NCBI RefSeq assembly: GCF_057098645.1
Contig: NZ_CM169472.1
Reading direction: 5' to 3' (one strand)
Length of the DNA: 64,000 bases
Made by a program: the position numbers and the translations under genes. Every line of letters starts with the position of its first letter. Position 1 is the first letter of the stretch. Shown in pieces: positions 1,199 through 30,708 of this stretch. A model generated the notes under the pieces. It had not been told where the DNA came from. It ran no database searches and saw only the letters and a list, made by a program, of their open reading frames with translations.

Positions 1199-1864
1199 TT
1201 AATGCAGGCAGCACTGCTTAAATTTCTTACCACTACCGCACGGGCAAGGATCGTTACGCCCCGGTTTCTCTTCTGCTTTGATCGGTTGCTGAACAGCTTT
1301 TTCCTGCGGATGCGCCATCCAGTACGCATGTAGATCAAGCGCCGCCAGTCGAATGGCATCTACGCTCTCTTCAAACGCTTCTGGCGACATCTTCTCTACC
1401 CGCTCGAAGTTTTCCTCAGTACCGTGCAGCGCAATCGCCTCCAGCGCTGGTTTTAACGAATCGGGCAATGTTGACCAGTCAGAAAGTGCCACGCCCCGCA
1501 TATAGCCAAAGCACCACTCCTCAACAATCGTCAGCTCGCTGCCATCAACTTCTCGCAAGCCGAATAACGGCTCAAACTGCTCCGGGAATTCGTTCAGACG
1601 CTCTGCGGTATCGGCCATATGTTGAAAAGCCAGGTTCATAAAGCGCGTCATCTCTTTCTCTGACGCCCAGCGCGGCACATAGTCAGCCCCACCCCACACG
1701 GCAACCAGCCACTGTGCCGGTTCAATCTCTTGCGGAGAACTCAACACCGCCGTCAATAAACCGTCCAGCTCCGCCACATCAAGGATGGCGTGGTCAGTGT
1801 TGTATTTGGTCAGAATATCGTCCAGCCATTCCAACTCACTTTCGTTTAACGGTCCCGTTTTCAT
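1199..1864 (-). CDS. yecA: UPF0149 family protein YecA with C-terminal SEC-C metal-binding motif
   Basis: 221-aa ORF ending ...[20 protein letters not shown] (SecA-like metal-binding domain); position between tyrP and the leuZ tRNA operon as in E. coli. Confidence 0.88.
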
Positions 1865-2462: not shown

Positions 2463-4334
2463 TTACAGCGTAAATTCGTTTCCGGGTCCAGTGCCCAGGT
2501 TATTTACTATATAAGCATCTATTCTCTGATCATTAAATCGCCAGCAGTCAATGGCAAGATCCATCAGCAGGCGTTGCCTTGATGTGATGCTTTCCGCAGA
2601 CCAGTCTTGATATTCATATCCATATTTCAGCTTAAAGCGATTTAATGCAGTGTTATCACCAATTGAGTACTGGGAGTGGAGTAATCGAGTCATGATGATT
2701 TCAGAGTTTAAATATTCTGTTTGTTTTTTCAAAAACCAGTCTTCACTCAAATCATTGCAGTTATTGACAGACTGGTTAATTGTACCCTCTAATAATGTTA
2801 CATTACCAAGTTTGTAGAGATAACTTGTTCGATTTACATCAGAGAACTCCCCGTTTTCAGGGGCGTTTCGTACCGTCTGAGGAAGAATATGCTCAATTTG
2901 CATCTGCTGAATAGCCTGCTGGCTCTTTTCCGGAAAACCGCAAAGATGGCGGATATGATTCTCTAATCTACCCAATACATAACGTTGGCGATACTGAGGC
3001 GTAAAATTATAGTCATTAATAATTGAGAATCGTTCTTTAAATTCATCTAAACGCTCCACAACAAAAGGTATAAGTGTTGCTGAAACAACATTTGCAACCT
3101 CTGCTTTCGTTTTCACATCCCGAAGCTTTACAGCCCATTGAGTAAAGCGTTGCTCATATGTCTTCGATTGAATAGCCATTGTATTTGTAAAGAATAAAAA
3201 GCTCTCAAGTTGAGCACCTAAGAAATCCATTACATCATCTGAACAACTAATATCCAATGCCATTAGTAAAACCAAATGCTGACGTGAGCGATATTTATTA
3301 ATATATCCAATGTTACTTACGTTTGGAAAACGGATATTTTCACGCCAGTAGGCTGCTTCATTTGTTGCATTGACCAGGTTAGCGTATCGTTCTGATAATT
3401 TTTCCAATTCTTTGACGAGGACCATAGGGCGTGTCTTATACTGCAACGACAGTTCCCCCTCAGCTGAAATGATCCATTTATATATATCATCTTCACGCAA
3501 AATCCCGTGATGATATCGTGCCATCAGAAAGTAACGTAAAAAACGAAGCGGGTTATCACTTTCGCCGCAAGACTCAAGGTTATTAGTGATGGATTTCCAT
3601 GTTGTCTTTATTGCCGAAAACTGTTCTTCTTTTATCTGACTGAAAATCAAATTTTTAACAAGATCCATAGCATTAAGGCTGGCACCACGCTGATTGATCG
3701 TTTCGAAGATCTTTAATGCGCTACTTAAGTTCTCTGATTCAATGACAACCAGCTCAACTTTTGTTAAAAAAAAGCGAGCGAAGGAGATTAATCCATTCAA
3801 GCTATCTTGCAATTGGTATTTAAGATAATCACGAATGTGATCATACGCGTCAGCCATTTTTTTTACTGAAGCTGTTTCCGCAAAGGTATTGGTTTGCCCT
3901 TCAATTAACCGCGAAATAAATCCTCGACTTTCTTCATATTGAAGATCTAGTCTAATTAGATTTTCCTCACTATTAATATCATAACTAGAGAGCCATTCCT
4001 CAATAGTTTTCAGATATTCCAGCCCTTTTTTGTCAAGTGTATCCAATCTATCTTTTAATAGATCCCGTAAGGCACACATAGTGATGACAATAGTGGTCAA
4101 CCGCTGCTGTCCGTCAATAACATCATGCTTTTCCCCATTCTTTACGATAATAACAGAACCGAGAAAATAACCATTTTGATCTTTCTGCTCTGGTTGGTAT
4201 TCATTGTCTAAATCCATGAGAAACTGTTCAACCTGATCATCAACCTTCCATACATACTCACGTTGATAATCGGGAACTAAAAAATAATAATCGCTTAATT
4301 TTGATATATTTTTTACATCGGCTTCTATTTTCAT
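2463..4334 (-). CDS. DUF262 (ParB-like NTPase) / DUF1524 (HNH-like) fusion protein, GmrSD-like type IV restriction-type nuclease
   Basis: 623-aa ORF; N-terminal DGQQR motif typical of DUF262, C-terminal ...QIEHILPQ... His-Me finger-like motif typical of DUF1524; AT-rich. Confidence 0.65.
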   Translation of the reverse strand: MKIEADVKNISKLSDYYFLVPDYQREYVWKVDDQVEQFLMDLDNEYQPEQKDQNGYFLGSVIIVKNGEKHDVIDGQQRLTTIVITMCALRDLLKDRLDTLDKKGLEYLKTIEEWLSSYDINSEENLIRLDLQYEESRGFISRLIEGQTNTFAETASVKKMADAYDHIRDYLKYQLQDSLNGLISFARFFLTKVELVVIESENLSSALKIFETINQRGASLNAMDLVKNLIFSQIKEEQFSAIKTTWKSITNNLESCGESDNPLRFLRYFLMARYHHGILREDDIYKWIISAEGELSLQYKTRPMVLVKELEKLSERYANLVNATNEAAYWRENIRFPNVSNIGYINKYRSRQHLVLLMALDISCSDDVMDFLGAQLESFLFFTNTMAIQSKTYEQRFTQWAVKLRDVKTKAEVANVVSATLIPFVVERLDEFKERFSIINDYNFTPQYRQRYVLGRLENHIRHLCGFPEKSQQAIQQMQIEHILPQTVRNAPENGEFSDVNRTSYLYKLGNVTLLEGTINQSVNNCNDLSEDWFLKKQTEYLNSEIIMTRLLHSQYSIGDNTALNRFKLKYGYEYQDWSAESITSRQRLLMDLAIDCWRFNDQRIDAYIVNNLGTGPGNEFTL

Positions 4335-4391: not shown

Positions 4392-4901
4392 TCACAAACG
4401 AACAGGAGAGTAGACCCCTTCTACATTACAGCTATCTCCGTCATCAAAAATCAACTCTCCTGCACTATAACCATCCATGGATAAAATAGCCTTTTCATTG
4501 AGAGCCAGACTAAGGCACATTGATGTTTTTATCATATTATCTGTACCATAAATCTCATACCAGTTATCTTCTTTTTTAGAAACCTCTACCTCATACTTTC
4601 CTGAGTCAATATTAACCATGCTAAATACATTATCTACATCACATGAATCCTTGCTATCTGTAAAAATTATTTTTTTATCATAGCCATCAACCCTGAGATA
4701 TGCGTCTTCAGAATAAGCATAAACATAACAATATTTAGTATTAACAAAAGAATCCTTCCCAGTAATTTGATATAAATTACTATCTTTTCTTGTGACATTT
4801 ATTTCCCACGTATTGGCATGAACATAACCTGGAGCCAAAAACAGGGTTAATAAGAACGGTCCAATCTTGGCTTTAAAGTTTCTAACAATTTTGAAAAACA
4901 T
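4392..4901 (-). CDS. Secreted hypothetical protein with internal tandem duplication
   Basis: 169-aa ORF; N-terminal signal peptide (...LLTLFLAPGYVHA); two ~50-aa repeats each ending in a DSCDV/DSCNV motif; no recognisable family. Confidence 0.55.
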   Translation of the reverse strand: MFFKIVRNFKAKIGPFLLTLFLAPGYVHANTWEINVTRKDSNLYQITGKDSFVNTKYCYVYAYSEDAYLRVDGYDKKIIFTDSKDSCDVDNVFSMVNIDSGKYEVEVSKKEDNWYEIYGTDNMIKTSMCLSLALNEKAILSMDGYSAGELIFDDGDSCNVEGVYSPVRL

Positions 4902-4952: not shown

Positions 4953-5708
4953 CTACATATCAGCCAACAACATCCCAGCCATGCCATCCAGCCGTTTCTT
5001 GACCTTTTCCCACCCAGGCATAACCTGCCCCATCAGGCGGTAAAACTCTTCACTGTGGTTGTGCTCAGCAACATGGCATAACTCATGTAGCAAAACATAA
5101 TCGATACATTCTGAGGATGCCTTAACCAGCCATGGATTCAGGGTCAGACAGCCTTTTGCTGAACAGTTGCCCCATTGCGTTTGCATCGCCCGCAGACGTA
5201 TCGGAGGACGCTCACTGACCCAAAGGGTCTGCGGAATCAGTAAATCAAGCCTGCGCTGAAAAACATCTCTGGCACGTTCCCGATACCATTCAGCCAGCAA
5301 GGCTTTAATCTTTTCTGCCGATTTGTGTCTGACAGTCACTTCCAGACGCCCACGCAACATTTTCACTCGTTGCGGCACAGTAGCGTCTTCTGTCACTTTC
5401 AACTGATATTGCTTACCGAGATAATAATGGCTTTCTCCGCTGACATACTGACGCGGAACAATGTGTGTCTGTTGCTCCCTGAAATCACGCAGTTGCTGGT
5501 ATATCCAGCGCCCACGTTTTTTCAGCGCAGACAATACCTCGTGCTCCGGTGTTTCAGGCGGTACAGAGGCCACAACCCGGCAGTCCGGATAAACCTTGAT
5601 GAGCACCCTGCCCTTTACGACCTGACGCGGAACACACTGTACGACGATGACCTCATCACCATAGACAATGCGTAACGCTTTCATTGATGGCGATTCTTTT
5701 TCACTCAT
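4953..5708 (-). CDS. DUF45 / M48-like zinc metallopeptidase (YgjP-like)
   Basis: 251-aa ORF with HELCHVAEHNH (HExxH) motif; start overlaps hsdR stop by 4 bp, implying co-transcription; this family commonly follows hsdR. Confidence 0.7.
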   Translation of the reverse strand: MSEKESPSMKALRIVYGDEVIVVQCVPRQVVKGRVLIKVYPDCRVVASVPPETPEHEVLSALKKRGRWIYQQLRDFREQQTHIVPRQYVSGESHYYLGKQYQLKVTEDATVPQRVKMLRGRLEVTVRHKSAEKIKALLAEWYRERARDVFQRRLDLLIPQTLWVSERPPIRLRAMQTQWGNCSAKGCLTLNPWLVKASSECIDYVLLHELCHVAEHNHSEEFYRLMGQVMPGWEKVKKRLDGMAGMLLADM

Positions 5709-8700
5709 GATTTCATCAAACCAACGCGCAGTATCTGGATGATGGTTTCCACAATACGGTTAACCTGATTCATTCCGGCACCAATTTCCCGGCAGGCCGT
5801 AAACAGCAGTGGTAGCAGACTTGTCTTAACGACTTTCTCAATGTCCTGGGGGTTCAGGGAGTTTTCTGCCACCGCTTTGACGATAATGTTGTCCACGTCA
5901 AAAGCCAGCTTCGTCCACTTATCCTGCACTTGAACGTCTTTTACCACAAAAACCTCAGGTAGCTCTTTTTTAAATACACCGTAATATGCCTGAGCATGCT
6001 TGTTTACCGCCAAAGCATCCGGGATATCACTGAGCTTACGGGCTTTAACCTGTTCTTCAAACTCACGGAATAAGAGGTACTGCTTAAGTGGATGGTCGAA
6101 CAGTTTTTCAGCCTCTTCGATTGCCATACGCAGGAGTCTGGAAAAGGCCTCCTGAGCATACGGATCATCACGCAGCTCCTGCTCAATCATCTTCGTCACA
6201 CGGGTTTTAATGATGTCGGTTTCATTGCGGGTTTTATTGTTATCCCACTCTTCGGGTTTTTCGCTCTTGCCCATTTTACCGACTTCATACACGCCATCCG
6301 GTTCACGAACCTCAACGCCGGTAACATGCTTATCCAGCAATTTTTTCACCTGCTCAGCGTAGTCGTCATAATTGACCTGCTCTCCACTTACCTGCATCGC
6401 CCACTGGCGAAGGCTGGACATCTGTTTTACGGTTTCTTTATAGAGATTTCGGTCTTGTTCCGTAAAGCTCTTGTCGGTGAAGAAGGTAGCGGACTGCAGT
6501 GCCACTTTCAGGCATCCGGCAAAGGCCGTTAACGCCTCGAAGAAATCATCACGGGTTTTCTGATGGATATCGACCATCTCTCCGTCACGTTCTTCCATTT
6601 TAGGCACCAGTACTGCACGTAACTGCTCAGTATCATTTTTGTTTTTAACACCGGCAAATATGGCCCACAACTGGTTATACAGATGCGGCAGACGTTTATA
6701 TTCAGAGCTCATGGCGCTGTACAGCCCGTCAATATCCTTGATGTCGTATCCTCCCTGGGTTCGGGAGGCGAGATCCTGATATTTGCCGATAGTCGTGTCC
6801 AGTTCAGCCAGAATGCCGCGATAATCAATCAGCAGGCCAAACTTTTTCAGTGGATGCAGACGGTTTACCCTTGCAATCGCCTGGATAAGGTTGTGGGACT
6901 TAAGCGGCTTGTCGATATACAGCACGGTATTCTTCGGTTCATCAAATCCGGTGAGCAGTTTATCAACGACGATCAGTAATTTGAGCTTATCATCAGTATC
7001 GAAACGACTGATGATATTGCGGGTATACACAGACTCATCCTGCATGCCGACGTTATCTTTCCACCATTTCGTCACTTCCGGCAGTTTGCTTTCATCCACC
7101 TCAGTATTCCCTTCCCGGGTATCCGGCGGGCTGATAACTACAGCTGACTCAAACAACCCGGCTTCATCAAGATACTTTTTATATTTGATGGCGGAAATCT
7201 TGCTGTCGCAGGCAAGTTGGCCTTTCAGCCCCTCATCAATATTCTTCGAGAAGTGTGTGGCGATATCGAGTGCGATCAGCCGGATGCGGTCATCTGCACT
7301 GTAGACCTCACCTTTACGGGCATATTTACGTTTAAGGTCGGCTTTTTGCGCTTCGCTTAACCCATCGGTAATACGGTCAAACCAGGCATCTATTGCCCGA
7401 TCGTTAACCTCAAGGTCGGGAATACGTTCTTCATACAGCAAAGGTGTAACGGCTTTATCTTCTACCGCTCGCTGCATGGTATAAGCGTGGACAATCGGCC
7501 CGAATTTATTGGTGGTCTTATCTTCTTTTAGCAATGGCGTACCGGTGAATGCCACAAAGGCGGCGTTCGGCAGTGCCAGTTTCATTCGCACATGGTTCTC
7601 ACCCCCCTGGCTGCGGTGTCCTTCATCAATCAGAACGATGATGTCGGGGCTGGTATTGACGCATTCAGGCAATTTTGTCGCTGAGTTAAATTTCTGGATA
7701 AGGGTAAAGATTATACGTTCTTTACCAGAGCCAATCTGCTGTGCCAGCTTCTGACCTGAGGTCGCCATCGCTTTGGCCTTATCATCCTTCCCTGCCAGTT
7801 CGCCACCAGAGACAAAAGTGCCGCTGAGCTGCCCTTCAAGGTCCACGCGGTCCGTCACCACCACAATACGACACTGCTTCAGGCTGTCATGAAGGATCAG
7901 CGCCTTGCTGAGGAATACCATGGTGTAAGATTTACCTGACCTCGTGGTATGCCAGATCACCCCACCTTCCCTGCCCCCGTCTGGTCTGCGGGTACTGATG
8001 CGTTCCAGCAGTCTTTTTATCCCGAACACCTGCTGATAGCGGGCAACAATTTTTCCGGTTTTTTTATCAAACAGGGTGAAGAAGCGGGTCATCTCCAGCA
8101 GACGTTCCGGTGAAAGCAGACTGATGAGCAGCTTATCCTGCCCGCTGACTGCCAGTTCCCCCCCATCGATTAACTGTTGATACCATTTGAGATCGACTGA
8201 AGGACGATGATCAAACAACGCATGAATTTGTTCAGTCGATAACTGATGGTTGCGCAGCGCATACATCTGCGGATCGGTAATATCTTCTTCGCGCCATGCC
8301 GCCCAGAATTTCATTGGCGTATGGCATGTACCGTAGCGCCCGTCATGACCGTTAATCGAAAGTAATAACTGGCTGTAGACAAACAGCTGCGGGATTTCAT
8401 CGTTGAACTGGTTGCGGATACTCTGGGATATCCCCTCGTCAATGGTTGGCCCTTTCTTGCCATGACCAGCCGGGCTTTTCGCTTCAATAACAGCCAGCGG
8501 GATACCATTAACAAAGCAGACAATATCCGGTCTGCGGGTTTCAACACCGCCTGACCGCAATACCGTAAATTCTTCAGTAAAATGGAACTGGTTATTTTCC
8601 GGATGTTCCCAGTCGATCAGCGCAATGGTGGGGTTGACCTTCTTGCCATCGACAAATTCGGTGACGGCGATACCGTAGAGCAGATGGTTATACATCCGTT

Positions 8701-8989
8701 CATTGGCTTTGAGCAGCCCTTCATTCAGCGCCGGAGAACAGACCTGTGATATCAGGTTATCCAGTGCTTTTTCCGATAACTGGCAGTTTTTGCCACCCGC
8801 CATAAAGGAACGCTTCGACAGCTCTTCACGCAGAACCGGACGCAGCACCACCTCATCCTGTTTATAGCCCCGGTAATCCATAATCTGTTTCGGAGATAAA
8901 AACGTCCAGCCGAGGCTGGTCAGTAACGTCAGTGCCGGGATTTTGGCGCTGTATTCTTCCTGGAATTTAGGTTGGTAGTGCTTATCCAC
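5705..8989 (-). CDS. hsdR: Type I restriction enzyme R (restriction/translocase) subunit
   Basis: 1094-aa ORF with helicase-type motifs (e.g. VLIDEGHRSQ DEAH-like box); operon context with hsdM/hsdS. Confidence 0.88.
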   Translation of the reverse strand: MDKHYQPKFQEEYSAKIPALTLLTSLGWTFLSPKQIMDYRGYKQDEVVLRPVLREELSKRSFMAGGKNCQLSEKALDNLISQVCSPALNEGLLKANERMYNHLLYGIAVTEFVDGKKVNPTIALIDWEHPENNQFHFTEEFTVLRSGGVETRRPDIVCFVNGIPLAVIEAKSPAGHGKKGPTIDEGISQSIRNQFNDEIPQLFVYSQLLLSINGHDGRYGTCHTPMKFWAAWREEDITDPQMYALRNHQLSTEQIHALFDHRPSVDLKWYQQLIDGGELAVSGQDKLLISLLSPERLLEMTRFFTLFDKKTGKIVARYQQVFGIKRLLERISTRRPDGGREGGVIWHTTRSGKSYTMVFLSKALILHDSLKQCRIVVVTDRVDLEGQLSGTFVSGGELAGKDDKAKAMATSGQKLAQQIGSGKERIIFTLIQKFNSATKLPECVNTSPDIIVLIDEGHRSQGGENHVRMKLALPNAAFVAFTGTPLLKEDKTTNKFGPIVHAYTMQRAVEDKAVTPLLYEERIPDLEVNDRAIDAWFDRITDGLSEAQKADLKRKYARKGEVYSADDRIRLIALDIATHFSKNIDEGLKGQLACDSKISAIKYKKYLDEAGLFESAVVISPPDTREGNTEVDESKLPEVTKWWKDNVGMQDESVYTRNIISRFDTDDKLKLLIVVDKLLTGFDEPKNTVLYIDKPLKSHNLIQAIARVNRLHPLKKFGLLIDYRGILAELDTTIGKYQDLASRTQGGYDIKDIDGLYSAMSSEYKRLPHLYNQLWAIFAGVKNKNDTEQLRAVLVPKMEERDGEMVDIHQKTRDDFFEALTAFAGCLKVALQSATFFTDKSFTEQDRNLYKETVKQMSSLRQWAMQVSGEQVNYDDYAEQVKKLLDKHVTGVEVREPDGVYEVGKMGKSEKPEEWDNNKTRNETDIIKTRVTKMIEQELRDDPYAQEAFSRLLRMAIEEAEKLFDHPLKQYLLFREFEEQVKARKLSDIPDALAVNKHAQAYYGVFKKELPEVFVVKDVQVQDKWTKLAFDVDNIIVKAVAENSLNPQDIEKVVKTSLLPLLFTACREIGAGMNQVNRIVETIIQILRVGLMKS

Positions 8990-9058: not shown

Positions 9059-10843
9059 TTATGATGAAAAGAACGGCGAGTCCCGATAAAGGCGATTGTA
9101 CTTGACCTGTTCTGTTTCGCCCTTGTTTACATTACCAAATTTCTCCTGATGCGTCGTACAGCAGGAACCACAGGATGCACAAATAAATCGTCCTTCTGAA
9201 CATTTTTCATGCAAATCCCTGGCGTCAATTATTTCGCTGCATTTGTAACCAATACAGTGATTAATGTAATGCCCGATACCAAACTGTTCGCACGAATGAC
9301 TGGCACATTTAAAGACGGTCAGGCGATACGCGGCCTGGAAAGGTTTTTTCACAAATCCTTTCGACTTTGTATCCCAGACGCTGACTTCCACACGAGCATA
9401 TTTCATATCTGGAACCATCAGCACCCCACAACTTCGGCAATGCAAGCGGGAATGTAATTCTCTGATACGATTGAAATACCCAGCCAGTTTAATTGGGAAA
9501 TCCCGCTTAGAAGGTTCGCCTGCAATCAGATAGGTCATGCCATAGTGGGCAAGCCAGTCATAAATAGTGAAGTCGATGTAATCCCGACTGAGGTCGGGTA
9601 GTACCTGCGGATCATGGCAGATTTTCGAACGACAAAGGAATTTTTTCTCTATCGTTCCGTCAGGTTGTTTTGCATTCCAGTGAAATGCCTCACAGGATAA
9701 TTTTAAATTCCGGGAACGAATTTTCAATGAGCTACACTGTGGGAACAATTTGAAAACAGAAGGATGGCTTACCGGGATTTTACCCGACAACACTCCCTGC
9801 CATATCTCATGCAGAATAATACTCAGAACGGACTGTTCATCGTTACGCCCAATCAGCGGTAACAATTTACTCAGAATAAAGTATTCAGGGTCAGAAGAAA
9901 TTTCAGTATTCGACTCAATATCATTAACAAAACTGAAATCTTTCCTGAACATCTTCTGTTTAATCAAATACTTATTGACAAAAGGACTAATCACGGAATG
10001 TTTATAAAATTGCTCTCTCGATGAGAATTTCTGCTGATAGGCATCACGGACAAATGGTTGTATATCCATTTTATTTTTCGTGAAACTACGTCGAACAAAA
10101 TTCTCTATATCATCATGCCGATGTTCAAGAATCCGCTCGCTGCTTATACAATCGTAAAATGCCAGGTAGAGAATAGCACTTATAGATATATGGCTGAGTA
10201 ATTCATTGATGATGTCCGATGTTGAAGCCCCCTGGCAATCCGTAGCCGCAGAACACCTTTTCACCCAAACAGCGAACTGATCAATGTTATTATCGATAAA
10301 TGACGAAGGCATGACTGCAGGAGATATTTGTTGTGCGGTCAAATCATCAAAATTCTTATCAGAGGCGAAAAGTGCAAACTGGTTATCGTAGTTACGTGAT
10401 TTTAAAAATAGCGGCAAGACTTTTGTAGCAGCTATATCACTGGTAACTAACCGAATTATAGCCCTTTCGCCAAAGGACTGAGTGAGAAAATTAATAACGC
10501 AGTCACGATAACGCCAACGAGCGAAATCAACGCCCTCCTCAATAATAGCCCGGAGATATTCAATAAGGAGCTCAGCCGTCTCCTCATCTGTTTTATCAAG
10601 AATGTGAACATTAAAAGCCGTAGGCTTACCATTTTTACCTGTACCTTCCCTGAACAGCACCGGTGCATTGTCTGCGGGTGTATAGTTCCGGCTTATCTCA
10701 TTCTTATGAAAAAACAGCTCATTACCATTCTCTGATAAGAGAAAGCCAAAGTTATTCTCCCGATCCGTTTTGCTGTTGTAGCCTCCGAACCAGAGAACAT
10801 TTCCCATGTACCACCGGGAACGATCCAGATTGTTCACTGCCAT
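9059..10843 (-). CDS. Hypothetical protein: N-terminal cold-shock-like (OB-fold) domain, large unknown middle region, C-terminal Cys-rich zinc-ribbon-like region
   Basis: ORF 9059..10921; start chosen at internal Met (MAVNNL...) to avoid a 56-bp overlap with the upstream gene; N-terminal NNFGFLLSENGNELFFHKNEI resembles the CspA-type GFGFI...VFVH motif; C-terminus has clustered CxxC / CxH / CxxC motifs. Confidence 0.55.
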   Translation of the reverse strand: MAVNNLDRSRWYMGNVLWFGGYNSKTDRENNFGFLLSENGNELFFHKNEISRNYTPADNAPVLFREGTGKNGKPTAFNVHILDKTDEETAELLIEYLRAIIEEGVDFARWRYRDCVINFLTQSFGERAIIRLVTSDIAATKVLPLFLKSRNYDNQFALFASDKNFDDLTAQQISPAVMPSSFIDNNIDQFAVWVKRCSAATDCQGASTSDIINELLSHISISAILYLAFYDCISSERILEHRHDDIENFVRRSFTKNKMDIQPFVRDAYQQKFSSREQFYKHSVISPFVNKYLIKQKMFRKDFSFVNDIESNTEISSDPEYFILSKLLPLIGRNDEQSVLSIILHEIWQGVLSGKIPVSHPSVFKLFPQCSSLKIRSRNLKLSCEAFHWNAKQPDGTIEKKFLCRSKICHDPQVLPDLSRDYIDFTIYDWLAHYGMTYLIAGEPSKRDFPIKLAGYFNRIRELHSRLHCRSCGVLMVPDMKYARVEVSVWDTKSKGFVKKPFQAAYRLTVFKCASHSCEQFGIGHYINHCIGYKCSEIIDARDLHEKCSEGRFICASCGSCCTTHQEKFGNVNKGETEQVKYNRLYRDSPFFSS

Positions 10844-10865: not shown

Positions 10866-11549
10866 TCAGTGCAGGCAGCACTTTTTAAATTTTTTACCAC
10901 TGCCACACTGACACGGGTCATTACGACCGGGCAGTTTTTCTGCCCCCTTCACGGGAACAGGCCGGGATGATGCCTCTGACATTCTCACCGACAACCAGTG
11001 CTGGTAAAGCGCCAGTGCCGCAGGCTGAATGAGAGTAATACTCTGTTCAAATTGAACAGGTGACATTTTCTCAACCACTGGGAAGTTCTTTTCAATACCA
11101 TGAAGGGCTATCGCCTCCAGCGAGGGACGTAAGGCCTCTGGCAAGGCTGACCAGTCATCCAGAGACCGGCCTTTCATATACCCGAAACACCACTCTTCGA
11201 CGATGGTATATGTCTTCCCCTTCACCTCACGTCCATTGAAAATCGGTTCAAACTGTTCAGGGGCCTCATACAGGCAGCCAGCGATATCGTTCATATGCTG
11301 AAAACACAGCCCCACAAAACGCGTCATCTCTTTTTCAGTGGTCCAGCGAGGGTGGTAATCACCTCGCCCCCAGATAGCACTGAGCCAGGTATTAGGGGAA
11401 ATCGTATTCGGGCCAGAGACAATCGCCGTCAGAAAGCCATCCAGCTCAGAGAAACAGAGCACAGAGTCATCATTGCCGTATTTCATCAACACCTCTTCCA
11501 GCCAGTCGATTTCCCGGTCAATCAGCGGCCCGCTTTTCGTCAGTTTCAT
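10866..11549 (-). CDS. YecA-like UPF0149 / SEC-C motif protein (island-borne paralog of core yecA)
   Basis: 227-aa ORF alignable over its whole length with YecA (1199..1864), roughly half identical by eye; same C-terminal [20 protein letters not shown] motif; start abuts the hsdS stop. Confidence 0.8.
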   Translation of the reverse strand: MKLTKSGPLIDREIDWLEEVLMKYGNDDSVLCFSELDGFLTAIVSGPNTISPNTWLSAIWGRGDYHPRWTTEKEMTRFVGLCFQHMNDIAGCLYEAPEQFEPIFNGREVKGKTYTIVEEWCFGYMKGRSLDDWSALPEALRPSLEAIALHGIEKNFPVVEKMSPVQFEQSITLIQPAALALYQHWLSVRMSEASSRPVPVKGAEKLPGRNDPCQCGSGKKFKKCCLH

Positions 11550-12189
11550 TCGGCAACCGCCTCATCGACCTTAACACGACGTTTGCCAGTCAGTAGCTGT
11601 TGCATCAGGGCTTTTTTCTCGTCTTTCAGGCAGGCGAGTTTTTTCTCCAGCGTGGAGATTTCAGCGTCGGCAGCGGAAAGGACGGCGGCGATTTTTTGTT
11701 GTTCTTTGATATCTAATGGCAACCTAAAGTCTTTCTCTTTAAGTTCTCGCATATGTCTGCTGTAACCTAAATTCGGAATATCTGTATTTGAAAGAAGATA
11801 GTATCCAAGTTTTGGTTCAAGTATTTTGCTAGTTTTTATTACTTGCGTTCCATCAGCACCGGGACAAAACACAAACTCAATCCATTTGACGCATCTTGTA
11901 TGATCGCCAAAAACAATCACAGGCACGTCCGAATAAACCTCTAAATTATTACAGTACCCAGCAATTCGACTTTGCCCTTGATCGATTATAGGGATGGAAC
12001 CTGACTGTAAATAATCGGAAGATTTGACTTGCGCCGATTTTTTATTTGCAACAATGAAAGCATTATCAAACGTTAAATATACCCACTCCCCATTAAACCT
12101 CCCCCCATTCTCATCCAGCAAGCGTTTTTGTCCGGTAAGCAATTGCTGCATCAGGGCTTTTTTCTGTTGCTGGCTGTTGGTGAGAAGCG

Positions 12190-13245
12190 GCTTTGTTGAA
12201 TAAATCAGATTTCGGGTAAGTCTCCCCCGTAGCGGGTTGTGTTTTCAGGCAATACGCACGCTTTCAGGCATACCTGCTTTCGTCATTTTGTTCAGCGCTC
12301 GTACCAGGGCCATAGCCTCCGCAACCTGACCATCGTAGTCACGCAGCGTCAGTGAACCCCCGAACAGCTGTTTTACCCGGTACATCGCCGTTTCCGCTAT
12401 CGAGCGACGGTTGTAATCTGTTGTCCATTTCCACCGCGCATTACTCCCGGTCATTCGCTGATTAGCCACTGCACGGTTACGGTCTGCATATTCACCGGGC
12501 CAGTAGCCCGCACCTTTTCGGGGAGGGATAAGCGCGCTGATTTTCTTACGCCGCAGTTCATCGTGACATAGCCGGGTATCGTAAGCGCCATCGGCGGCGG
12601 CTGACCTGATTTTCCGGTGGGTTTGCCGGATTAACCCGGGGAAGGCCTCTGAGTCCGTAACGTTGTTCAGCGACAGGTCTGCACAGATGATTTCATGTGT
12701 TTTACTGTCAACGGCGAGATGCAGCTTACGCCAGATACGGCGGCGTTCCTGGCCATGCTTTTTGACTTTCCACTCGCCTTCACCGAAGACCTTCAGCCCG
12801 GTGGAATCAATCACCAGATGTGCGATTTCACCCCGGGTGGGCGTTTTGAAACTGACATTAACCGACTTTGCCCGCCTGCTGACACAGCTGTAATCCGGGC
12901 AGCGTAGCGGAACGTTCATCAGAGAAAAAATGGAATCAATAAAGCCCTGCGCAGCGCGCAGGGTCAGCCTGAATACGCGTTTAATGACCAGCACAGTCGT
13001 GATGGCAAGGTCAGAATAGCGCTGAGGTCTGCCTCGTGAAGAAGGTGTTGCTGACTCATACCAGGCCTGAATAGCTTCATCATCCAGCCAGAAAGTTATG
13101 GAGCCACGGTTGATGAGGGCTTTATTGTAGGTGGGCCAGTTGGTGATTTTGAACTTTTGCTTTGCCACGGAACGGTCTGCGTTGTCGGGAAGATGCGTGA
13201 TCTGATCCTTCAACTCAGCAAAAGTTCGATTTATTCAACAAAGCC
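12190..13245 (-). mobile_element. IS5-family (IS903-group) insertion sequence, copy 1
   Basis: ~1057 bp; terminal inverted repeats GGCTTTGTTGAATAAATC at both ends; flanked by 9-bp target-site duplication GTGAGAAGC (12181..12189 and 13246..13254). Confidence 0.85.
12245..13213 (-). CDS. IS903-group (IS5 family) transposase
   Basis: 322-aa ORF; DDE transposase with ...LIDSTGLKVFGEGEWKVKKHG...WRKLHLAVD... region; identical protein encoded at 28742..29710. Confidence 0.88.
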   Translation of the reverse strand: MKDQITHLPDNADRSVAKQKFKITNWPTYNKALINRGSITFWLDDEAIQAWYESATPSSRGRPQRYSDLAITTVLVIKRVFRLTLRAAQGFIDSIFSLMNVPLRCPDYSCVSRRAKSVNVSFKTPTRGEIAHLVIDSTGLKVFGEGEWKVKKHGQERRRIWRKLHLAVDSKTHEIICADLSLNNVTDSEAFPGLIRQTHRKIRSAAADGAYDTRLCHDELRRKKISALIPPRKGAGYWPGEYADRNRAVANQRMTGSNARWKWTTDYNRRSIAETAMYRVKQLFGGSLTLRDYDGQVAEAMALVRALNKMTKAGMPESVRIA

Positions 13246-13815
13246 GTGAGAAGCTTTTCCGTCACCGAAATCGCCTCATCCCAGGTTGACAGAATTTTAA
13301 CGATTCTCTTTTGTTCAGACAGTGGGGGGATATTAAATGGCCACTTAAACCAACTATCTAACTTAAAAATCATTTTCTCTATGTGCACACCAATGCTAGA
13401 GTGGAAGCAGGTTTGCTGGAAATATAGAGACTCCGATAGAAATTCCATATAAGGAAGATAAAAACCGGACTTCCCTGTAAGCACACAATATTCATTCGAT
13501 ACAATTGAGCCAGAAAGTTCTTTAGGTACAAGACCGCAAGCACCGTGCACAATTTGTCGTTTTGATATGAGAAAGTCGCCTTCTTTAATATAGAATTGAC
13601 TTTTTACGGAGATATCTTTTCCTTTAAGATGCTCACGTCTTATTACGCCACCTCTGGAGCGCTTTACTGTAACTAAGTCATACTCTTGATTATCTTGTAT
13701 ATATGCCTTTCTTGCCTCTATATTTAAGCACTTTTCTAATGATAACTTTTGCCATCCTGTAGGTAGCATTCCAAGGATCGGTTTTCCAGCTTTAACGCTC
13801 ACTGGGTAAAGCGAA

Positions 13816-15339
13816 TCACGAGCCATAACCCAACTCCTTCAAATACCCTGCCATCTCAACTTCCAGCTTCGCCAGTTCCACCTTCAGTTGCTCACGCTCT
13901 GCTCGCACCGCCACCAGGTCAATCTCATCCTCTTCTTCAAAGGTATCGACATAGCGCGGAATATTGAGGTTGTAATCGTTGTCCTGAATTTCCTTCAGGC
14001 TGGCAAGATAGGCGTATTTCTCGACGTTATCGCCATCACGGTAGGTCTTGACGATTTTCTTAATGTTTTCTTCGCTAAGCTGGTTCTGGTTTTTACCTGC
14101 CTTGAATTCACGGCTGGCATCGATAAACAGCACCTTGTCATCAACTTTCTACTTTTTGAAAATCAGAATCGCAGCCGGAATCCCCGTACCGTAGAACAGT
14201 TTTTCCGGCAGACCAATTACCGCATCCAGCAAATTTTCGTCGATCAGTTTCTGGCGAATTTTACCTTCGCTGGAGCCACGGAAAAGCACACCGTGTGGCA
14301 CAACTACGCCCATACGGCCAGTTCCCGGTTTCAGGGTTTCGATCATATGCGAGATAAAAGCGTAATCTCCTTTAGTCTTCGGCGGTACACCGCGACGAAA
14401 ACGGCCAAACTTATCGTTCTCGGCCTCGTCATGGCCCCACTTATCGAGGCTGAACGGTGGGTTAGCGGTCACGATATCAAACAGCATCAGGTCGCCATTT
14501 TTATCGAGCAGCTTCGGGTTACGAATGGTATCGCCCCACTCGATTTTATGGTTGTCTTCCCCGTGCAGGAACATATTCATTTTCGCCAGCGACCACGTAG
14601 AACCGATCGCTTCCTGACCGAACAAGGCATAGTTACGACTATCATGCCCGGAGACAATTTTACGCCCACACTTCATCAATAATGAACCGGAACCACAGGC
14701 TGGATCGCAGATGGTATCACCCGGTTGCGGATCGAGCAGTTCTGCAATCAGGTCCGAAACTTCCGGCGGGGTATAGAACTCCCCGGCTTTCTGCCCACCG
14801 CTGGCGGCAAAGTTTTTGATCAGGTATTCGTAAGCATTGCCGATAACGTCCAGCGTACCGACACGACTCGGCTTCAGGTTGAGATCTTCACCGGCGAAGT
14901 CTTCCAGTAGCTGACGCAGTATGGTGTTTTTCTGTTTTTCTTCGCCAAGACGATCGGTGTTAAACGAAATATCCTGGAACACGCTTTTCCCGGCATCTTT
15001 CAGTTTGGTTCCGTTGGCTTCTTCGATTGCATGCAGAGCCTGATCGATACGCTCACCGTTACCCAGCTCATGGCGGCGTTCGTACAGCGCATAAAAGCTG
15101 GCACTTTTTGGCAGTACAAAACGCTCGTTGGCCATCATCGCTTCAATCAGTTCCGGCGCATCGCCATACTGTTCTTTGTATTCGTCATAGTGATCCTGCC
15201 AGACATCTGAAATGTACTTGAGGAACAGCATGGTAAGGATAAAGTCTTTATAGGTATCAGCACTGATGGTGCCACGGAACGTATCACACGCGGCCCACAG
15301 GGCTTTGTTGATCGTGTCCTGACTGATTTTGTCGTTCAT
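13816..15339 (-). pseudogene. hsdM: Type I R-M methyltransferase subunit hsdM with in-frame amber stop
   Basis: ORFs 14149..15339 (396 aa, N6-adenine MTase motifs incl. ...IVTANPPFS...) and 13816..14133 (105 aa) are in the same frame, separated by a TAG at 14149..14151. Confidence 0.75.
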
Positions 15340-23970: not shown

Positions 23971-24594
23971 AGTGCTCCTGGATTTTCTCTTTCTGGACAT
24001 TGACGTCTCCACTGGTTTAAACACGGCAATGGAGACTGTGGTGAAAAGAGTTAATTCCCGGAGTGACTGGCAGGATGCCAATCAATGATCGGAAGCATGC
24101 CAAATCGTGATCGATTGTGATGCCAAACTGTGATCGGAGATGGATGCCAAATCATGATCGATTCGAATGCCAAACTGCGATCGATTCAGATGCCATTTTG
24201 CAGCCGGGGGGGACGAACTCCCGGCATTTTTTCGGAGTTAACTATGAGCAATAATTTGCAGGACATCCTCGCTGCCGCATCGGGGTATCAGTCCGTGACT
24301 TCAGAGCCAGCGCTCAATCTTAAAAGACCTAAAACGCTTGATGATTATCCTGTGATACCACCTGCATCAAAAAAAGTATCTGTTATTTCAAGTGACCTGA
24401 CACTCCATATCGGTTTTGATACCGAATATGTTTTCAATCCTGAAACACAACAGAATGATATTCTGTCATATCAGAGTTATGTTGTCTTACCCGATAATAC
24501 AGGTATATCGAACATTATCTATCCACCTGACTCACAGAAAAAATCCCGGCTGTCTTTTAAGAACTTTCTCTGTCAAACGATTATGGATTTGCCC

Positions 24595-25500
24595 CTATAT
24601 TTCCAGACATCTGTTATCACTTAACCCATTACAAGCCCGCTGCCGCAGATATTCCCGTGGCGAGCGATAACCCAGCGCACTATGCGGATGCCATTCGTTA
24701 TAATGCTCGAACGCCTCTGCAAGGTTCTTTGCTGCCGTTAACCCGTCTGGTTTGGGCATGATACTGATGTAGTCACGCTTTATCGTTTTCACGAAGCTCT
24801 CTGCTATTCCGTTACTCTCCGGACTCCGCACCGCCGTGTTCTTCGGTTCAAGTCCCAACATCCGGGCGAACTGGCGTGTTTCATTAGCCCGGTAGCATGA
24901 ACCATTATCCGTCAGCCACTCCACTGGAGACGACGGAAGATCGTTGCCGAAGCGGCGTTCCACCGCTCCCAGCATGACGTCCTGTACTGTTTCACTGTTG
25001 AAGCCGCCGGTAGTCACCGCCCAGTGCAGTGCCTCACGATCACAGCAGTCCAGCGCGAACGTGACACGCAGTCTCTCTCCGTTATCACAGCAGAACTCGA
25101 ACCCGTCAGAGCACCATCGCTGATTGCTTTCTTTCACGGCCACTCTGCCTGTATGTGCCCGTTTCGATGGCGGTACAGCAGGTTTTCGCTCAAGCAACAG
25201 CGCATTCTGGCGCATGATCCGGTAAACACGTTTGGCATTGATCGCAGGCATACCATCAAGTTCTGCCTGTCTGCGAAGCAGCGCCCATACCCGACGATAA
25301 CCATACGTGGGCAGCTCTCCGATAACATGGTGTATACGGAGAAGCACATCCGTATCATCAGTGTGACGACTGCGGCGGCCATCCATCCAGTCATCGGTTC
25401 GTCTGAGAATGACGTGCAACTGCGCACGCGACACCCGGAGACAACGGCTGACTAAGCTTACTCCCCATCCCCGGGCAATAAGGGCGCGTGCGCTATCCAC
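24595..25500 (-). CDS. insD: IS2 transposase OrfB (InsD)
   Basis: 301-aa [24 protein letters not shown]... with DDE integrase core; overlaps insC as expected for a frameshift-fusion transposase. Confidence 0.85.
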
Positions 25501-25823
25501 TTTTTTGCCCGTCCATATTCAACGGCTTCTTTGAGGAGTTCATTTTCCATCGTTTTCTTGCCGAGCAGGCGCTGGAGTTCTTTAATCTGCTTCATGGCGG
25601 CAGCAAGTTCAGAGGCAGGAACAACCTGTTCTCCGGCGGCCACAGCAGTAAGACTTCCTTCCTGGTATTGCTTACGCCAGAGAAATAACTGGCTGGCTGC
25701 TACACCATGTTGCCGGGCAACGAGGGAGACCGTCATCCCCGGTTCAAAGCTCTGCTGAACAATTGCGATCTTTTCCTGTGTGGTACGCCGTCTGCGTTTC
25801 TCCGGCCCTAAGACATCAATCAT
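25458..25823 (-). CDS. insC: IS2 transposase OrfA (InsC)
   Basis: Starts [26 protein letters not shown]..., the InsC sequence as recalled; taken from the internal Met of ORF 25458..25868. Confidence 0.85.
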
Positions 25824-27974
25824 CTGTTCTCCAATGACTAGTCTAAAAACTAGTATTAAGACTATCACTTATTTAAGTGATACTGGTTGTCTGGAGATTC
25901 AGGGGGCCAGTCTAGATTACACCGCTTCTTGAAACGGGTGTGATTACAAAATGGCCCGGTATTATTAATATATATGCGCATTTCATTCGTGCGGATATCA
26001 CCTCCTTTGCCAATTTCTGGTCAGACTACAAAATTCTTCTGAAAGGAATACGCGGTACTGTCAGCAGCTTCAAAAATCGTTACGGTATCGATTTTGATGA
26101 ACAGCAGGAACGTCGCGTAAAGACTGAACAGATAATGTTTGACAAACGAACTTCCCCTCCGCGTTGCAGTAACGTAGCTTTCATCGATACACTGCTTATC
26201 ACTCCCGGGGGTATGGGTCTGGCTGAATGTGGTGAATTACTGGGTCTTCCCAAACTGACCATTCCTGCACCTTATTCCATAACCAATATGCGTGAATATC
26301 TTCTGGGCGACAGAGCAGGGTTTGAAGCCTATGCTCTGCGGGATGCCGAGATTGCGGTTCGTTATGCTTTACAGGTTCGCAATTTTTGCGCCCGGGAGCT
26401 GATGATTGATCGTGTCCCCGCCACCATCGGGGCGATGGCAGTTTCACGGTTCACCAAAACACTTAAAGAAAACAATATGTCTCCTGAAGTCTGCCTTGGG
26501 ACACACATTAAAACCCGTGAACTCTGGCTCACGGAGAAACAGGCATTCCGGACGATTAAAAACCCCGCCAGTGTTCCTTCAAGAGAGCTGTTTGAAACGT
26601 TCCCGATCAACTGTTACCACGGCGGACGCAATGAGTGTTTTATGATGGGGGTTACACCGTCTGATCACTGGTATGACTACGATCTGGCTGGAGCGTATAC
26701 CACCGGGCTATTAGATATCCTCATACCCGATTACGGAAACATCCGCCTCAGTAAAAATCCGGACGATTACTGTGGGCATGTAATGGGATTTGCGTTTGTC
26801 ACATTTCAGTTCCCGGAATCAGTTCCCTATCCCAGCCTGCCGGTTCGGACCGATCAATATGGGTTATTCTTTCCATTAAGTGGCGAATCATGGGCAACGG
26901 CACCTGAAATCGAACTTGCTCTGTCGCTCGGGGCAGAGATGACGATCCATAATGGGATCATCGTCCCCTGGATCTGTGACACCTCCCCACATAACAGCGA
27001 ATCAACATCGGTGTTTCTTCCCTTTGTTCAACAGGTCCGTGAGAACCGTAATCGCCATATTAAAGGTTCTCTGGAGGAGAAATTCTGGAAAGAAATTGGC
27101 AACTCGCTTTATGGCAAACTTGCTCAGGGCCTTCGCGCCAAAACCGCCTTTGATACTGCCCGTGGATTAAACAGATCCCTCCCACCATCATCGGTTACTC
27201 AGCCATTCTTTGCTGCGCATGTGACGGGATTTATCCGCGCCGTTGTCGGGGAACTCATGAATGCTTTGCCTTCTGATTCATCGGTTGTCAGCGTCACAAC
27301 CGATGGCTTTTTGACAAATTGCCCACTTAACAAGATAAACATGAGCGGTCCACTGTCTTCCCGCTTCCAGTCGCTGTGCGATATTGTTGATCCGGGTTCA
27401 TCAATGTTGACATGTAAGCATGAGGTCAGCCAGCTTATCGCCATGAAAACCCGGGGGCAGTTAACCTATAGAGCTATTCAGGGAAAACCTGTTGTTCATG
27501 CCAGGGCTGGCGTCAAACCTCCTGCCGATATTCCACGCAGTGACTATAACGACTATATGGTAGATCTTTACCTTAATCGTTTACCCGGTCAGACGTTATC
27601 CCGAAGTACGTTGATATCAACGCGTGAGATGTGGCTGTCGGAAAGCGATCTGGTATCCCGGGAACAGGATATCCGTCTTAATCTGGAATTCGATTTCAAA
27701 CGCCAGCCCGTACAGCCCGCCATGAATGAAGGGCATTTACTGATGTCTTCCCGCCCATGGGATAATATGGAAGAGGCTCTGCAGCAACGCTCTCTTTTCG
27801 ACGACTGGCGGCAAACGCATACACTGAAGACCCTGGCTGACTGGGATGACTGGTGTGATTTTCTCTATTGCCGGACGGTGTTTTCTGATATGAAACTAAA
27901 AGTCGGAAGCAAACGTAGTGATGATATTTTAGTCAGACTATTTCTCCGGGCGCTGACTCAGTGCCAATGGGGGC

Positions 27975-28523
27975 TTATGCTGAAAGATAAAAAAAGTTAT
28001 TCCTGTAAAGAGGTTGCTGAATGGCTGACGTCAGAAGGCTATTCAGTAACATGTCAAAAAGCACCTGCTGGATCTCCCGGGCCCGAAGGTCGCAGTAACG
28101 TATCTTCCCCAGACGAGGTTCAATGTATTGCGTGAAACGCTGAACATCCTTATCCCAGGACTTTTTATGGCGTTTGATGAACGGAACATAGGTCTGGTGA
28201 AAAAACTCACTAAGTGTTGGCATCGCACGATAATTATCGCGTTCTGCTTTAGGGTCATTTCCCAGTGCAATCGCCTCCTTGTGACGACGAGCTATCTGAC
28301 GGGCTGTCCCCACATCGATTTCAGGGAATCTGCCAATACTGATACTTTTTTTGGTACCGTGGAATGTGTAGCGCAGGAGGAAACGTTTGTTACCCGTTCG
28401 ACCTGAGAGACATTTGAGGCCTATGACCTCGGTATCTGATACCTCAAGCTCTGTAGATCGGGTATCTGTGTTTGCCGGAAGGGCTTTGATGGATGAATTG
28501 GTGAATCGGAAGGATTTTTGCAT
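27975..28523 (-). pseudogene. Truncated P4-type integrase (N-terminal arm-binding domain only)
   Basis: ORF 27975..28553; MQKSFRFTNSSIKALP...GTARQIARRHKEAIALGNDP resembles the DUF4102 arm-binding N-terminus of P4-family integrases; no catalytic domain; 3' part overlaps the piPolB 3' end on the opposite strand. Confidence 0.5.
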
Positions 28524-29766: not shown

Positions 29767-30578
29767 CCGTGCCGTTTGAAGAATACTGGCATTCACCGAT
29801 AAAAATCATGCTGGTTGGACGTGAAACCGCAGGCTGGAATACGCTGAATGGTAAGAATACGATATCACGGGTGTTGGGACTTATACCTGACGTCACCATC
29901 GGGCAAGTGGTTGAAGAAGCTGTAGATCGTTACAGGAAACATCTTCCGGTACAAAATTATGGCACCGCCAACCTCAAATCACGTAGCCGCTTCACGCAAT
30001 ATCATTTCAGGCTGGCCCGGGAGCTTAATATTCTTCCCCAGGCAATCGTGTATGCCAATCTACTGGCGTGGGATTACGACGGACTGACCCCTCTCAATCG
30101 CCCTCAAAATGAAGTGCAGGAAGTCATATTAGCCTCGCTGAAGCTACTGGCGGTACAAATTAAACACCTTGAGCCTGATTTCATCATCTTTGCATCTGGA
30201 GCCCGGAGAACAGACTACATCATAAAACAGGTGCTTACTGAGCTAGGCGGCTATGAGACTTCTTCAGTCATTCCGGGGAAGCTGTGGGAGTTCAAAACAG
30301 GTAATACAATCTGTTTCAGAATTGCCCATCCAAGGGCTATGCGCGGACACCAGAAGTACAGAGATGAGGTGATTGCACGAATTAAGCAACTTTGTACTCA
30401 GGGTGGCTAGAGCATTACAGCTTGCTCAGCAGGGCCCCTTCCCGGAAGAGTACCGGAAAACAGGCAAAGCAACCTGGTTCTCTATGCTGGAGGCGACACG
30501 TTCGATTCGGCATTGCCAGGCTGGAGATTGCAGCTCATTGCACCCCGTGAGCACAGGATATGCACAGGACATGAATTT

Positions 30579-30708
30579 CAGGCACAAAAAAACCACCCGG
30601 AGGTGGTTTCACGACACTGCTTATTGCTTTGATTTTATTCTTATCTTTCCCATGGTACCCGGAGCGGGACTTGAACCCGCACAGCGCGAACGCCGAGGGA
30701 TTTTAAAT
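30579..30708. repeat. Right direct repeat (attR): leuZ 3' end plus downstream terminator region
   Basis: 130 bp matching 1986..2115 with one mismatch; overlaps the intact tRNA-Leu 3' 56 nt. Confidence 0.85.
30586..30612 (-). terminator. Rho-independent terminator of the glyW-cysT-leuZ tRNA operon
   Basis: Minus-strand hairpin aaccacc-tccg-ggtggtt followed by a T7 run immediately 3' of leuZ. Confidence 0.7.

Follow-up and report, generated by a model that had tools for sequence, protein, structure and literature searches.

A mobile type I restriction-modification operon of enterobacteria carries its own YecA-family gene

The window analysed here, a stretch of 64,000 nucleotides from contig NZ_CM169472.1 (RefSeq assembly GCF_057098645.1), is a segment of an Escherichia coli chromosome that contains, besides the core gene yecA, a second, divergent gene of the same family within a genomic island; this island-borne copy is referred to below as yecA'. 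Our analysis revealed that members of the enterobacterial yecA' clade are nearly always found as a cistron within a mobile type I restriction-modification (R-M) operon with the gene order hsdM-hsdS-yecA'-(optional cargo)-hsdR-M48. The product of yecA' is an intact member of the YecA (AscA) family, in which a helical UPF0149 domain is joined to a metal-binding domain (MBD) of the SecA-like CXCX8CC type. The two paralogs of the window are located as follows.

10866-11549, minus strand: yecA', island-borne YecA paralog, 227 aa (open reading frame (ORF) and translation; Pfam, NCBIfam and PADLOC matches)
1199-1864, minus strand: core chromosomal yecA, 221 aa, intact, outside the island (translation; named 'UPF0149 family protein YecA' in RefSeq relatives, between tyrP and the island)

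The initial annotation had described these proteins as roughly half identical over their full length and as sharing nearly the same C-terminal sequence. Both ORFs are present, each on the minus strand, their translations agree with the protein strings quoted there, and BLASTP gave a full-length alignment with 129 identical residues out of 223 (58%), 74% positives and 3 gaps (E = 3e-100), far beyond chance. In RefSeq the product of yecA' is named 'YecA family protein'. Its UPF0149 domain spans residues 15-185 (Pfam PF03695, E = 1.7e-29) and is followed by a linker and by the SecA-like metal-binding tail, which matches Pfam SEC-C (1.8e-07); core YecA likewise matches both families and shares the CXCX8CC tail. 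The NCBIfam YecA equivalog model NF007704 (cutoff 149) assigned 350.5 bits to yecA' (residues 5-227) and 437.4 bits to core YecA, and TIGR02292 assigned 133.9 bits to yecA' against a cutoff of 33.8. The CXCX8CC motif, defined together with metal binding by the YecA MBD in earlier work (bioRxiv 10.1101/613315), is complete in yecA': C213-Q-C215-GSGKKFKK-C224-C225, with the conserved S217 and aromatic F221, this allele having CQC where CPC is usual.

The AlphaFold2 (AF2) model of yecA' reached a predicted local distance difference test (pLDDT) score of 94.1. In a fold search its nearest PDB entries were the UPF0149 structures 4gyt (probability 1.00, target-normalised TM-score 0.65) and 1izm, with weak E-values of 0.035 and 1.3, respectively, while the tail matched the MBD chains of SecA and YchJ. 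YgfB (HI0817, PDB 1izm) and lpg0076 (PDB 4gyt) have the helical UPF0149 fold in common with yecA' (Foldseek target-normalised TM-scores of 0.54-0.65), but they lack the SEC-C tail and are only ~12-14% identical to it. In Pseudomonas, YgfB acts through protein-protein interaction with a transcription antiterminator. No domain besides UPF0149 and SEC-C was found in yecA' with Pfam and NCBIfam, and no enzyme fold in the PDB fold search. Among the known proteins close to yecA', E. coli YecA/AscA shares with it the two-domain architecture, the CXCX8CC tail with its serine and aromatic residue, the predicted fold and 58% identity. In contrast to core YecA, which occupies the tyrP-yecA-leuZ locus, yecA' represents a separate clade encoded on mobile elements in an R-M operon. 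The two clades have 78 conserved positions in common and are fixed differently at 10 positions, including C32, F33, C92 and K154; yecA' also has a 3-residue N-terminal extension relative to core YecA and a net charge of -4 (pI 5.8) versus -21. A role as a DNA-mimic anti-restriction protein (Ocr/ArdA-like) was considered and rejected, since the charge is only -4 and there is no fold similarity.

The placement of yecA' inside an R-M operon, also claimed by the initial annotation, holds: its ATG overlaps the TGA of hsdS by 4 bp (ATGA; GAATGAAA), and hsdR lies one gene further on. On the minus strand the genes follow each other in the order hsdM, hsdS, yecA', a gene for a cold-shock domain (CSD) protein, hsdR, an M48/YgjP-like peptidase gene, a gene for a 169-aa protein and a DUF262/GmrSD-like gene (HEC-06). 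The neighbours of yecA' are listed below; L001 and similar handles denote the loci of relatives used for comparison.

13816-15339, minus strand: hsdM, pseudogene with an in-frame stop at codon 397 (between ILIFKK and KVDDK); 507 aa and intact in L001
13246-13826, minus strand: 5' part of hsdS (ORF 13215-13826; alignment to L001)
12189-13245, no strand assigned: IS903-like element (IS5 family), 1057 bp, interrupting hsdS (blastn break against L001; 322-aa transposase ORF)
11546-12188, minus strand: 3' part of hsdS, its stop overlapping the yecA' start (ORF 11546-12151; collinear with the intact hsdS of L001)
9059-10843, minus strand: optional embedded gene for a 594-aa protein (Pfam CSD, 2.7e-4; AF2 model and fold search)
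5705-8989, minus strand: hsdR, 1094 aa, intact (ORF; RefSeq annotation in L001)
4953-5708, minus strand: M48/YgjP-like metallopeptidase (annotation; Pfam YgjP-like in L008 and L009; 4-bp overlap with the hsdR stop)
4392-4901, minus strand: 169-aa ORF between the peptidase and DUF262 genes (hydrophobic, signal-peptide-like N-terminus; internal two-fold repeat)
2463-4334, minus strand: DUF262/GmrSD-like protein, a neighbouring defence gene (PADLOC HEC-06, 1.3e-79)

All three hsd genes are recognisable in the window, and the intact trio was found in L001-L004, L008 and L009. In this strain the R-M system is defunct, since an in-frame stop interrupts hsdM at codon 397 and hsdS is broken in two by the IS903-like element. 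The latter generated a 9-bp target duplication (a 9-bp overlap against L001), and its terminal inverted repeats form repeat families D3 and D4; a second, inverted IS903-like copy is located at 28710-29766. Still intact in the window are hsdR, yecA' and the CSD gene. A consensus scan for an internal promoter of hsdR gave 8 sites versus 9.8 expected, i.e., not above chance. The M48 peptidase is conserved across the whole hsdM-hsdS-hsdR-M48 family, being present in all relatives. For the 169-aa ORF (4392-4901), only weak matches to Leptospira surface proteins were obtained.

Full-length yecA' was found in 417 of the 5,426 complete E. coli genomes, and the cognate hsdR in 540 of them; the one hsdR-without-yecA' locus that was inspected (L012) is an IS1-truncated remnant. 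In all loci inspected yecA' adjoins hsdS, and each E. coli match listed carries the annotation 'restriction endonuclease subunit S' under the match. About 347 plasmids, mostly conjugative Klebsiella IncF plasmids, encode yecA' at a protein identity of at least 80%, and 374 plasmids encode HsdR at an identity of at least 90%. The same gene order occurs in E. coli chromosomes, in a Klebsiella plasmid and in metagenome contigs, the ATGA coupling of hsdS and yecA' is conserved, and diverged yecA' genes (71-81% identity) from Providencia and metagenome contigs again adjoin hsdS. The vehicles of the operon include pipolins (here a putative one at leuZ), Klebsiella IncF plasmids and other islands. 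The initial annotation had pointed to the position of core yecA next to the insertion site; this adjacency looks coincidental, as the same operon resides on Klebsiella plasmids and unrelated contigs. In three Providencia loci (L005-L007, positions 8001-8684), an intact yecA' (81%) has as neighbours a GmrSD gene and an hsdS reduced to 60-87 aa, and hsdR of the hsdM-hsdS-hsdR-M48 family is absent; these loci hint that yecA' may persist without its R-M operon.

A phage-borne origin of yecA' was rejected, as the six matches in phage databases are core yecA genes at the ends of prophage records; a scan of IMG/VR for full-length YecA returned SEC-C tails only, besides one host flank and one UPF0149-only match. 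More than 100 plasmids of Xanthomonas and the Pseudomonas syringae group carry distant YecA genes (~26-29% identity) beside Tn3-family transposase or recombinase genes and without R-M context; examples are found in X. citri pXcB (L010, 5974-6675) and a P. amygdali plasmid (L011, 5974-6687).

In a search of 5.8 billion proteins, identity to yecA' dropped from 68-90% within the embedded clade straight to at most 59% for core YecA of Enterobacterales. A neighbor-joining (NJ) tree (Kimura distances, 215 columns, 100 bootstrap replicates) united the embedded enterobacterial copies in one clade with 98% bootstrap support. Its sister at 99% is P0017, a protein 68% identical to yecA' and encoded in a non-R-M context, the adjoining gene being closest (83%) to a protein named from Citrobacter sp. 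JGM124; the embedded clade and P0017 together join core enterobacterial YecA at 89%, and deeper nodes were poorly resolved, with supports of 1-44%. The initial annotation had proposed a phylogeny and a neighbourhood survey as checks, to be failed if the island copy fell among ordinary yecA orthologs with no tie to mobile elements or R-M loci; the outcome does not refute it. The island-borne copies form a separate clade and do not fall among ordinary chromosomal orthologs, and this clade is tied to mobile type I R-M systems on pipolins, IncF plasmids and other islands, with distant homologs recurring in four non-enteric lineages.

Several metagenomic proteins (P0014, P0015 and P0019) combine core-type and embedded-type halves. 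They were rejected as evidence for recombination between the paralogs, as their junctions occur in none of the 5,426 complete E. coli genomes; for the same reason these hybrids, found on short, low-coverage contigs (P0019 in L022, 164-838; P0014 in L023, 355-1029), are probably assembly chimeras across a conserved region.

Among most enterobacterial operons HsdM, HsdR and the M48 peptidase are 96-99% identical (90-95% in comparison with the outlier L008), with 66-98% identity for yecA' and ~35-40% for HsdS in the same operons. Alleles of yecA' are mosaic. The ratio of nonsynonymous to synonymous substitution rates (dN/dS) was 0.07-0.20 for yecA' across allele pairs up to 30% diverged, 0.02-0.05 for hsdM and 0.03-0.10 for hsdR; dS of yecA' was often several-fold above that of hsdR, a high synonymous divergence that is common to the neighbouring hsdS region. 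Judging from these ratios, yecA' is under purifying selection and is less constrained than the flanking hsdR, and its alleles are older or more recombined than those of hsdR. Positive selection as the cause of yecA' divergence was rejected in view of the low whole-gene dN/dS, the elevated dS and the mosaic alleles. Core YecA itself is fast-evolving (67% identity between E. coli and Klebsiella), and therefore the rate of yecA' alone is unremarkable.

Outside Enterobacterales, YecA-like genes were sought in GTDB species genomes, and the Hsd proteins of the window were then compared by tblastn. Among the matches listed, loci of this R-M family contain a YecA homolog in Pseudomonas sp. SJZ079 (51% identity), P. 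chengduensis (47%) and Aliidiomarina celeris (41%), where HsdM is 70-85% and HsdR 60-72% identical to the window proteins and the M48 gene is present. The order hsdM-...-hsdS-...-YecA-hsdR-M48 was also seen in a TARA contig (P0300) and in Pseudohongiella (P0284), both with an HsdM that is 85-87% identical. In these non-enteric loci the space between hsdS and hsdR is shared by YecA with SIR2-like, HEC-09, KAP NTPase, RhuM (PDC-S05) and DUF4357 (PDC-S14) genes, and DinD (PDC-S13) and PDC-S02 genes lie between hsdM and hsdS. Of 11 non-enteric homologs with at least 40% identity and a readable context, five are embedded in the hsdM-hsdS-hsdR-M48 family and six are not. In the R-M relatives of Acetobacter and Proteus (HsdR 59-66% identical) the hsdS-hsdR gap is empty, and in those of Acinetobacter and Vibrio it contains Abi-family or unknown genes. 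Our comparison shows that the hsdS-hsdR gap is a landing pad for embedded defence-type genes, of which YecA-like genes are recurrent residents in several proteobacterial lineages. The possibility that yecA' encodes a core subunit of this R-M family was rejected, because the close relatives in Acetobacter and Proteus lack YecA; it is an accessory gene.

A metagenome scan for further embedded copies yielded mostly SEC-C-only proteins, and the R-M family was found in none of 80 loci among the matches listed. The initial annotation had suggested a role of the whole protein family in defence or nucleic-acid biology; this is not indicated by the data, as most YecA-family loci sampled are housekeeping contexts and the tie to R-M is confined to the hsdM-hsdS-hsdR-M48 family. 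Two other arrangements were observed. A Chlorobiaceae metagenome-assembled genome (L073, 6078-8693) encodes three tandem YecA-like proteins (~240 aa, all with SEC-C tails) immediately upstream of the hsdM-hsdS genes of another type I system and of an ImmA/RmrA-like gene. Proteins P0146-P0254, mostly from marine Gammaproteobacteria-like sources, contain YecA modules fused to DUF6933 or DUF1186 N-terminal domains, tandem UPF0149 domains or long C-terminal extensions; as a hint to function, fusion partners were set aside, only DUF6933, DUF1186 and tandem UPF0149 having been found, which is uninformative.

The CSD gene, located between yecA' and hsdR in the window, defines two operon architectures, being absent from about half of the E. 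coli yecA' operons. The 594-aa protein consists of an N-terminal cold-shock domain, a helical middle part and a C-terminal third with 15 invariant cysteines. It had no PADLOC or NCBIfam match, and only its CSD part matched in the PDB fold search. Homologs of this protein occur without yecA', namely alone in a Vibrio integrative and conjugative element, in an Erwinia chromosome and in a BREX locus, where the gene directly follows brxL; the CSD gene is therefore a separate embedded module. An obligate partnership with yecA' was rejected on account of these homologs and of the operons lacking the CSD gene. The protein looks like an uncatalogued embedded defence candidate.

Concerning yecA' itself, the initial annotation had proposed an unrecognised role. 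The family is in fact already present in PADLOC as the candidate PDC-S12, and a preprint on Enterobacterales pipolins lists PDC-S12 with the defence systems that these elements exchange (10.1101/2024.05.22.595293). PDCs were put forward as candidates because their genes lie within BREX, DISARM or type I R-M loci (Payne et al., bioRxiv 10.1101/2024.01.29.577857). The product of yecA' matches the PDC-S12 hidden Markov model (HMM; PDLC04917) end to end (8.5e-98, 324.6 bits, profile positions 2-218 of 218), and the gene is embedded in the type I R-M locus between hsdS and hsdR on the same strand. It differs from PDC-S12 as modelled in that the model does not set the embedded clade apart from core yecA: core YecA obtained 366.1 bits, more than yecA', and for this reason PADLOC output alone cannot separate the two. 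PADLOC will report PDC-S12 in any genome with a core yecA, and published PDC-S12 counts are probably inflated unless genomic context was checked.

The island that carries the operon lies in a chromosome segment with the order tyrP-yecA ... leuZ-cysT-glyW-pgsA, and the best matches of the window are O145:H28 strains (100% identity). Its ends are marked by a pair of direct repeats.

1983-2115, no strand assigned: 133-nt direct repeat (att) at the left end of the island (family D1; 98% identity with 30576-30708)
30576-30708, no strand assigned: right 133-nt direct repeat, overlapping the 3' part of tRNA-Leu(taa) (30653-30739)

These repeats, the right one overlapping tRNA-Leu, corroborate the island described by the initial annotation. 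It is 28.6 kb long between the repeats and is integrated at leuZ; the start of core yecA lies 119 nt beyond the left repeat, outside the island. The site of E. coli pipolins is the tRNA-Leu gene between pgsA and yecA (bioRxiv 10.1101/2024.05.22.595293), and in the window a tRNA-Leu gene is likewise found between pgsA and yecA, with direct repeats flanking the element. ORF 25940-28135 has a weak Pfam DNA_pol_B_2 match (independent E-value 0.002), and its homolog is named 'DNA polymerase type-B family protein' in RefSeq. The site, a tyrosine recombinase and this family-B-polymerase-like ORF (by RefSeq naming and the weak Pfam match) identify the island as a putative E. coli pipolin. The polymerase-like gene (24130-28135, plus strand) is apparently broken by an IS3-family insertion, with transposase ORFs at 24595-25868 on the minus strand. 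Insertion sequence (IS) elements (IS3, IS21 and IS903-like) occupy much of the 19.7-29.8 kb region, and the pipolin therefore looks degraded.

As to the function of yecA', the biochemistry of its parent protein offers a starting point. In E. coli K-12, according to preprints from the Huber laboratory, AscA binds SecB (dissociation constant ~150 nM) and 70S ribosomes in an MBD-dependent manner and suppresses aggregation of citrate synthase, and deletion of ascA has a synthetic cold-sensitive phenotype with deletion of secB (bioRxiv 10.1101/2020.07.21.215244). For those plasmid-borne type I systems that do not respond to ClpXP, establishment and restriction alleviation have been attributed to assembly, a matter described as unsettled (Loenen et al., 2014, PMC3874165). 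We tentatively suggest, as a possibility that falls short of being probable, that yecA' has kept the biochemical properties of YecA and works for the R-M module as a chaperone or adaptor of its own. The protein would keep MBD-dependent docking on SecB or the ribosome together with holdase-type client binding, would be made in step with HsdS, and would capture nascent or unassembled Hsd subunits. Such capture could determine how the restriction-competent R2M2S complex is assembled, where it is placed or when it becomes available, e.g., during establishment of the operon in a new host whose DNA is unmethylated.

Several points weigh against this proposal. The mechanism is drawn from homology and gene order, and the data on the parent protein YecA/AscA come from preprints only. 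The related operons of Acetobacter and Proteus work without YecA, so that R-M assembly does not need this protein in principle. Outside Enterobacterales, YecA is separated from hsdS by other cargo and lies nearer to hsdR; coupling to HsdS is therefore not universal. Finally, intact yecA' beside a decayed R-M system, as seen in Providencia and in the window, fits an R-M-independent role equally well.

The last observation agrees with a different and unlikely explanation, in which yecA' would be a self-standing embedded defence gene, as the PDC-S12 entry implies, or a second line of defence in the manner of PrrC. In the latter case it would respond when a phage interferes with the R-M enzyme or with translation, halting protein synthesis or export through its ribosome- or SecB-docking tail (abortive infection). 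The company of such genes in the hsdS-hsdR gap of relatives (Abi-family, SIR2-like, the validated antiviral HEC-09, PDC-S02, PDC-S05, PDC-S13 and PDC-S14) is in line with this explanation, as is the origin of PDC-S12 in guilt by embedding, an approach by which seven of nine Hma-embedded candidates were validated (Payne et al., bioRxiv 10.1101/2024.01.29.577857). PrrC of the EcoprrI type IC operon resembles yecA' in being nested among hsd genes and occurring almost only in that context. PrrC guards the R-M enzyme and combines anticodon nuclease activity with an NTPase domain, whereas yecA' has neither an enzymatic nor a toxic domain, only UPF0149 and the MBD, and is 58% identical to a non-toxic housekeeping protein. 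Moreover, an independent system would be expected to occur alone as well, but the clade was met outside the R-M operon only once (sister P0017), and the literature searched contained no experimental test of PDC-S12. It is unlikely, though conceivable, that yecA' acts as an establishment brake holding HsdR or the whole complex inactive after entry into a new host or upon DNA damage, as a cis-encoded counterpart of ClpXP-mediated restriction alleviation and possibly together with the M48 peptidase of the operon. In type IA and IB systems ClpXP, a host chaperone system, controls HsdR during establishment, a process that yecA' may serve, but it belongs to an unrelated family and is host-encoded and proteolytic, unlike the operon-borne yecA'. 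A brake would suit an operon whose conjugative plasmids and integrative elements time and again reach hosts without its methylation. Translation of yecA' is linked to that of the modification genes, ahead of hsdR, all members of the R-M family show translational coupling of the peptidase gene to hsdR, and the control of ClpXP-insensitive systems is an unsettled matter (PMC3874165), which would likewise be in keeping with a brake; yet the peptidase is also present in relatives without YecA.

Two further explanations appear improbable. One, related to the decoy or modulator idea of the initial annotation, sees in yecA' a decoy for, or a guard of, host YecA, which would titrate a phage factor directed against YecA or SecB or report it to the R-M module. 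In the tree the embedded enterobacterial clade joins core YecA of enterobacteria (89%) rather than embedded copies of other lineages, as if host-like sequence were required, and yecA' diverges much faster than HsdM and HsdR of the same operons (66-98% amino-acid identity versus 97-99% among most of them and 92-95% in comparison with the outlier L008). On the other hand, NJ resolution among the lineages is poor, whole-gene dN/dS is well below 1, and the divergence need not mean an arms race, given that core YecA is itself fast-evolving; neither a phage factor targeting YecA nor, besides host flanks, a full-length YecA on phage contigs was found. According to the other, yecA' would be a neutral or redundant passenger, a yecA duplicate trapped beside hsdS and carried by linkage, adding general chaperone capacity. 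Core yecA is already present in all hosts, related R-M operons manage without YecA, and the mosaic alleles have their high synonymous divergence in common with the hsdS region, as this scenario would predict. It accords poorly with purifying selection across alleles up to 30% diverged, with an intact frame in hundreds of genomes and plasmids, with the conserved ATGA coupling, and with the recurrence of distant YecA genes in the same gap in four other lineages.

A broader reading, which we regard as speculative and rather unlikely, would make UPF0149-MBD proteins a repeatedly recruited, host-matched coupling module of one widespread type I R-M family, linking the restriction complex physically to the ribosome, SecB or the Sec system. 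If true, such a module could bring the enzyme to the point of foreign-DNA entry, gate restriction while the operon becomes established, or detect that a phage has taken over translation; it would also shed light on what YecA proteins, whose role has been obscure so far, do in the cell. Type I R-M systems are commonly portrayed as consisting of three genes. A conserved, co-translated chaperone paralog in the operon of ~8% of complete E. coli genomes and of hundreds of Klebsiella resistance plasmids provides a concrete, easily testable handle on how the mobile systems assemble and enter new hosts without harm, and it also bears on the function of YecA/UPF0149 proteins.

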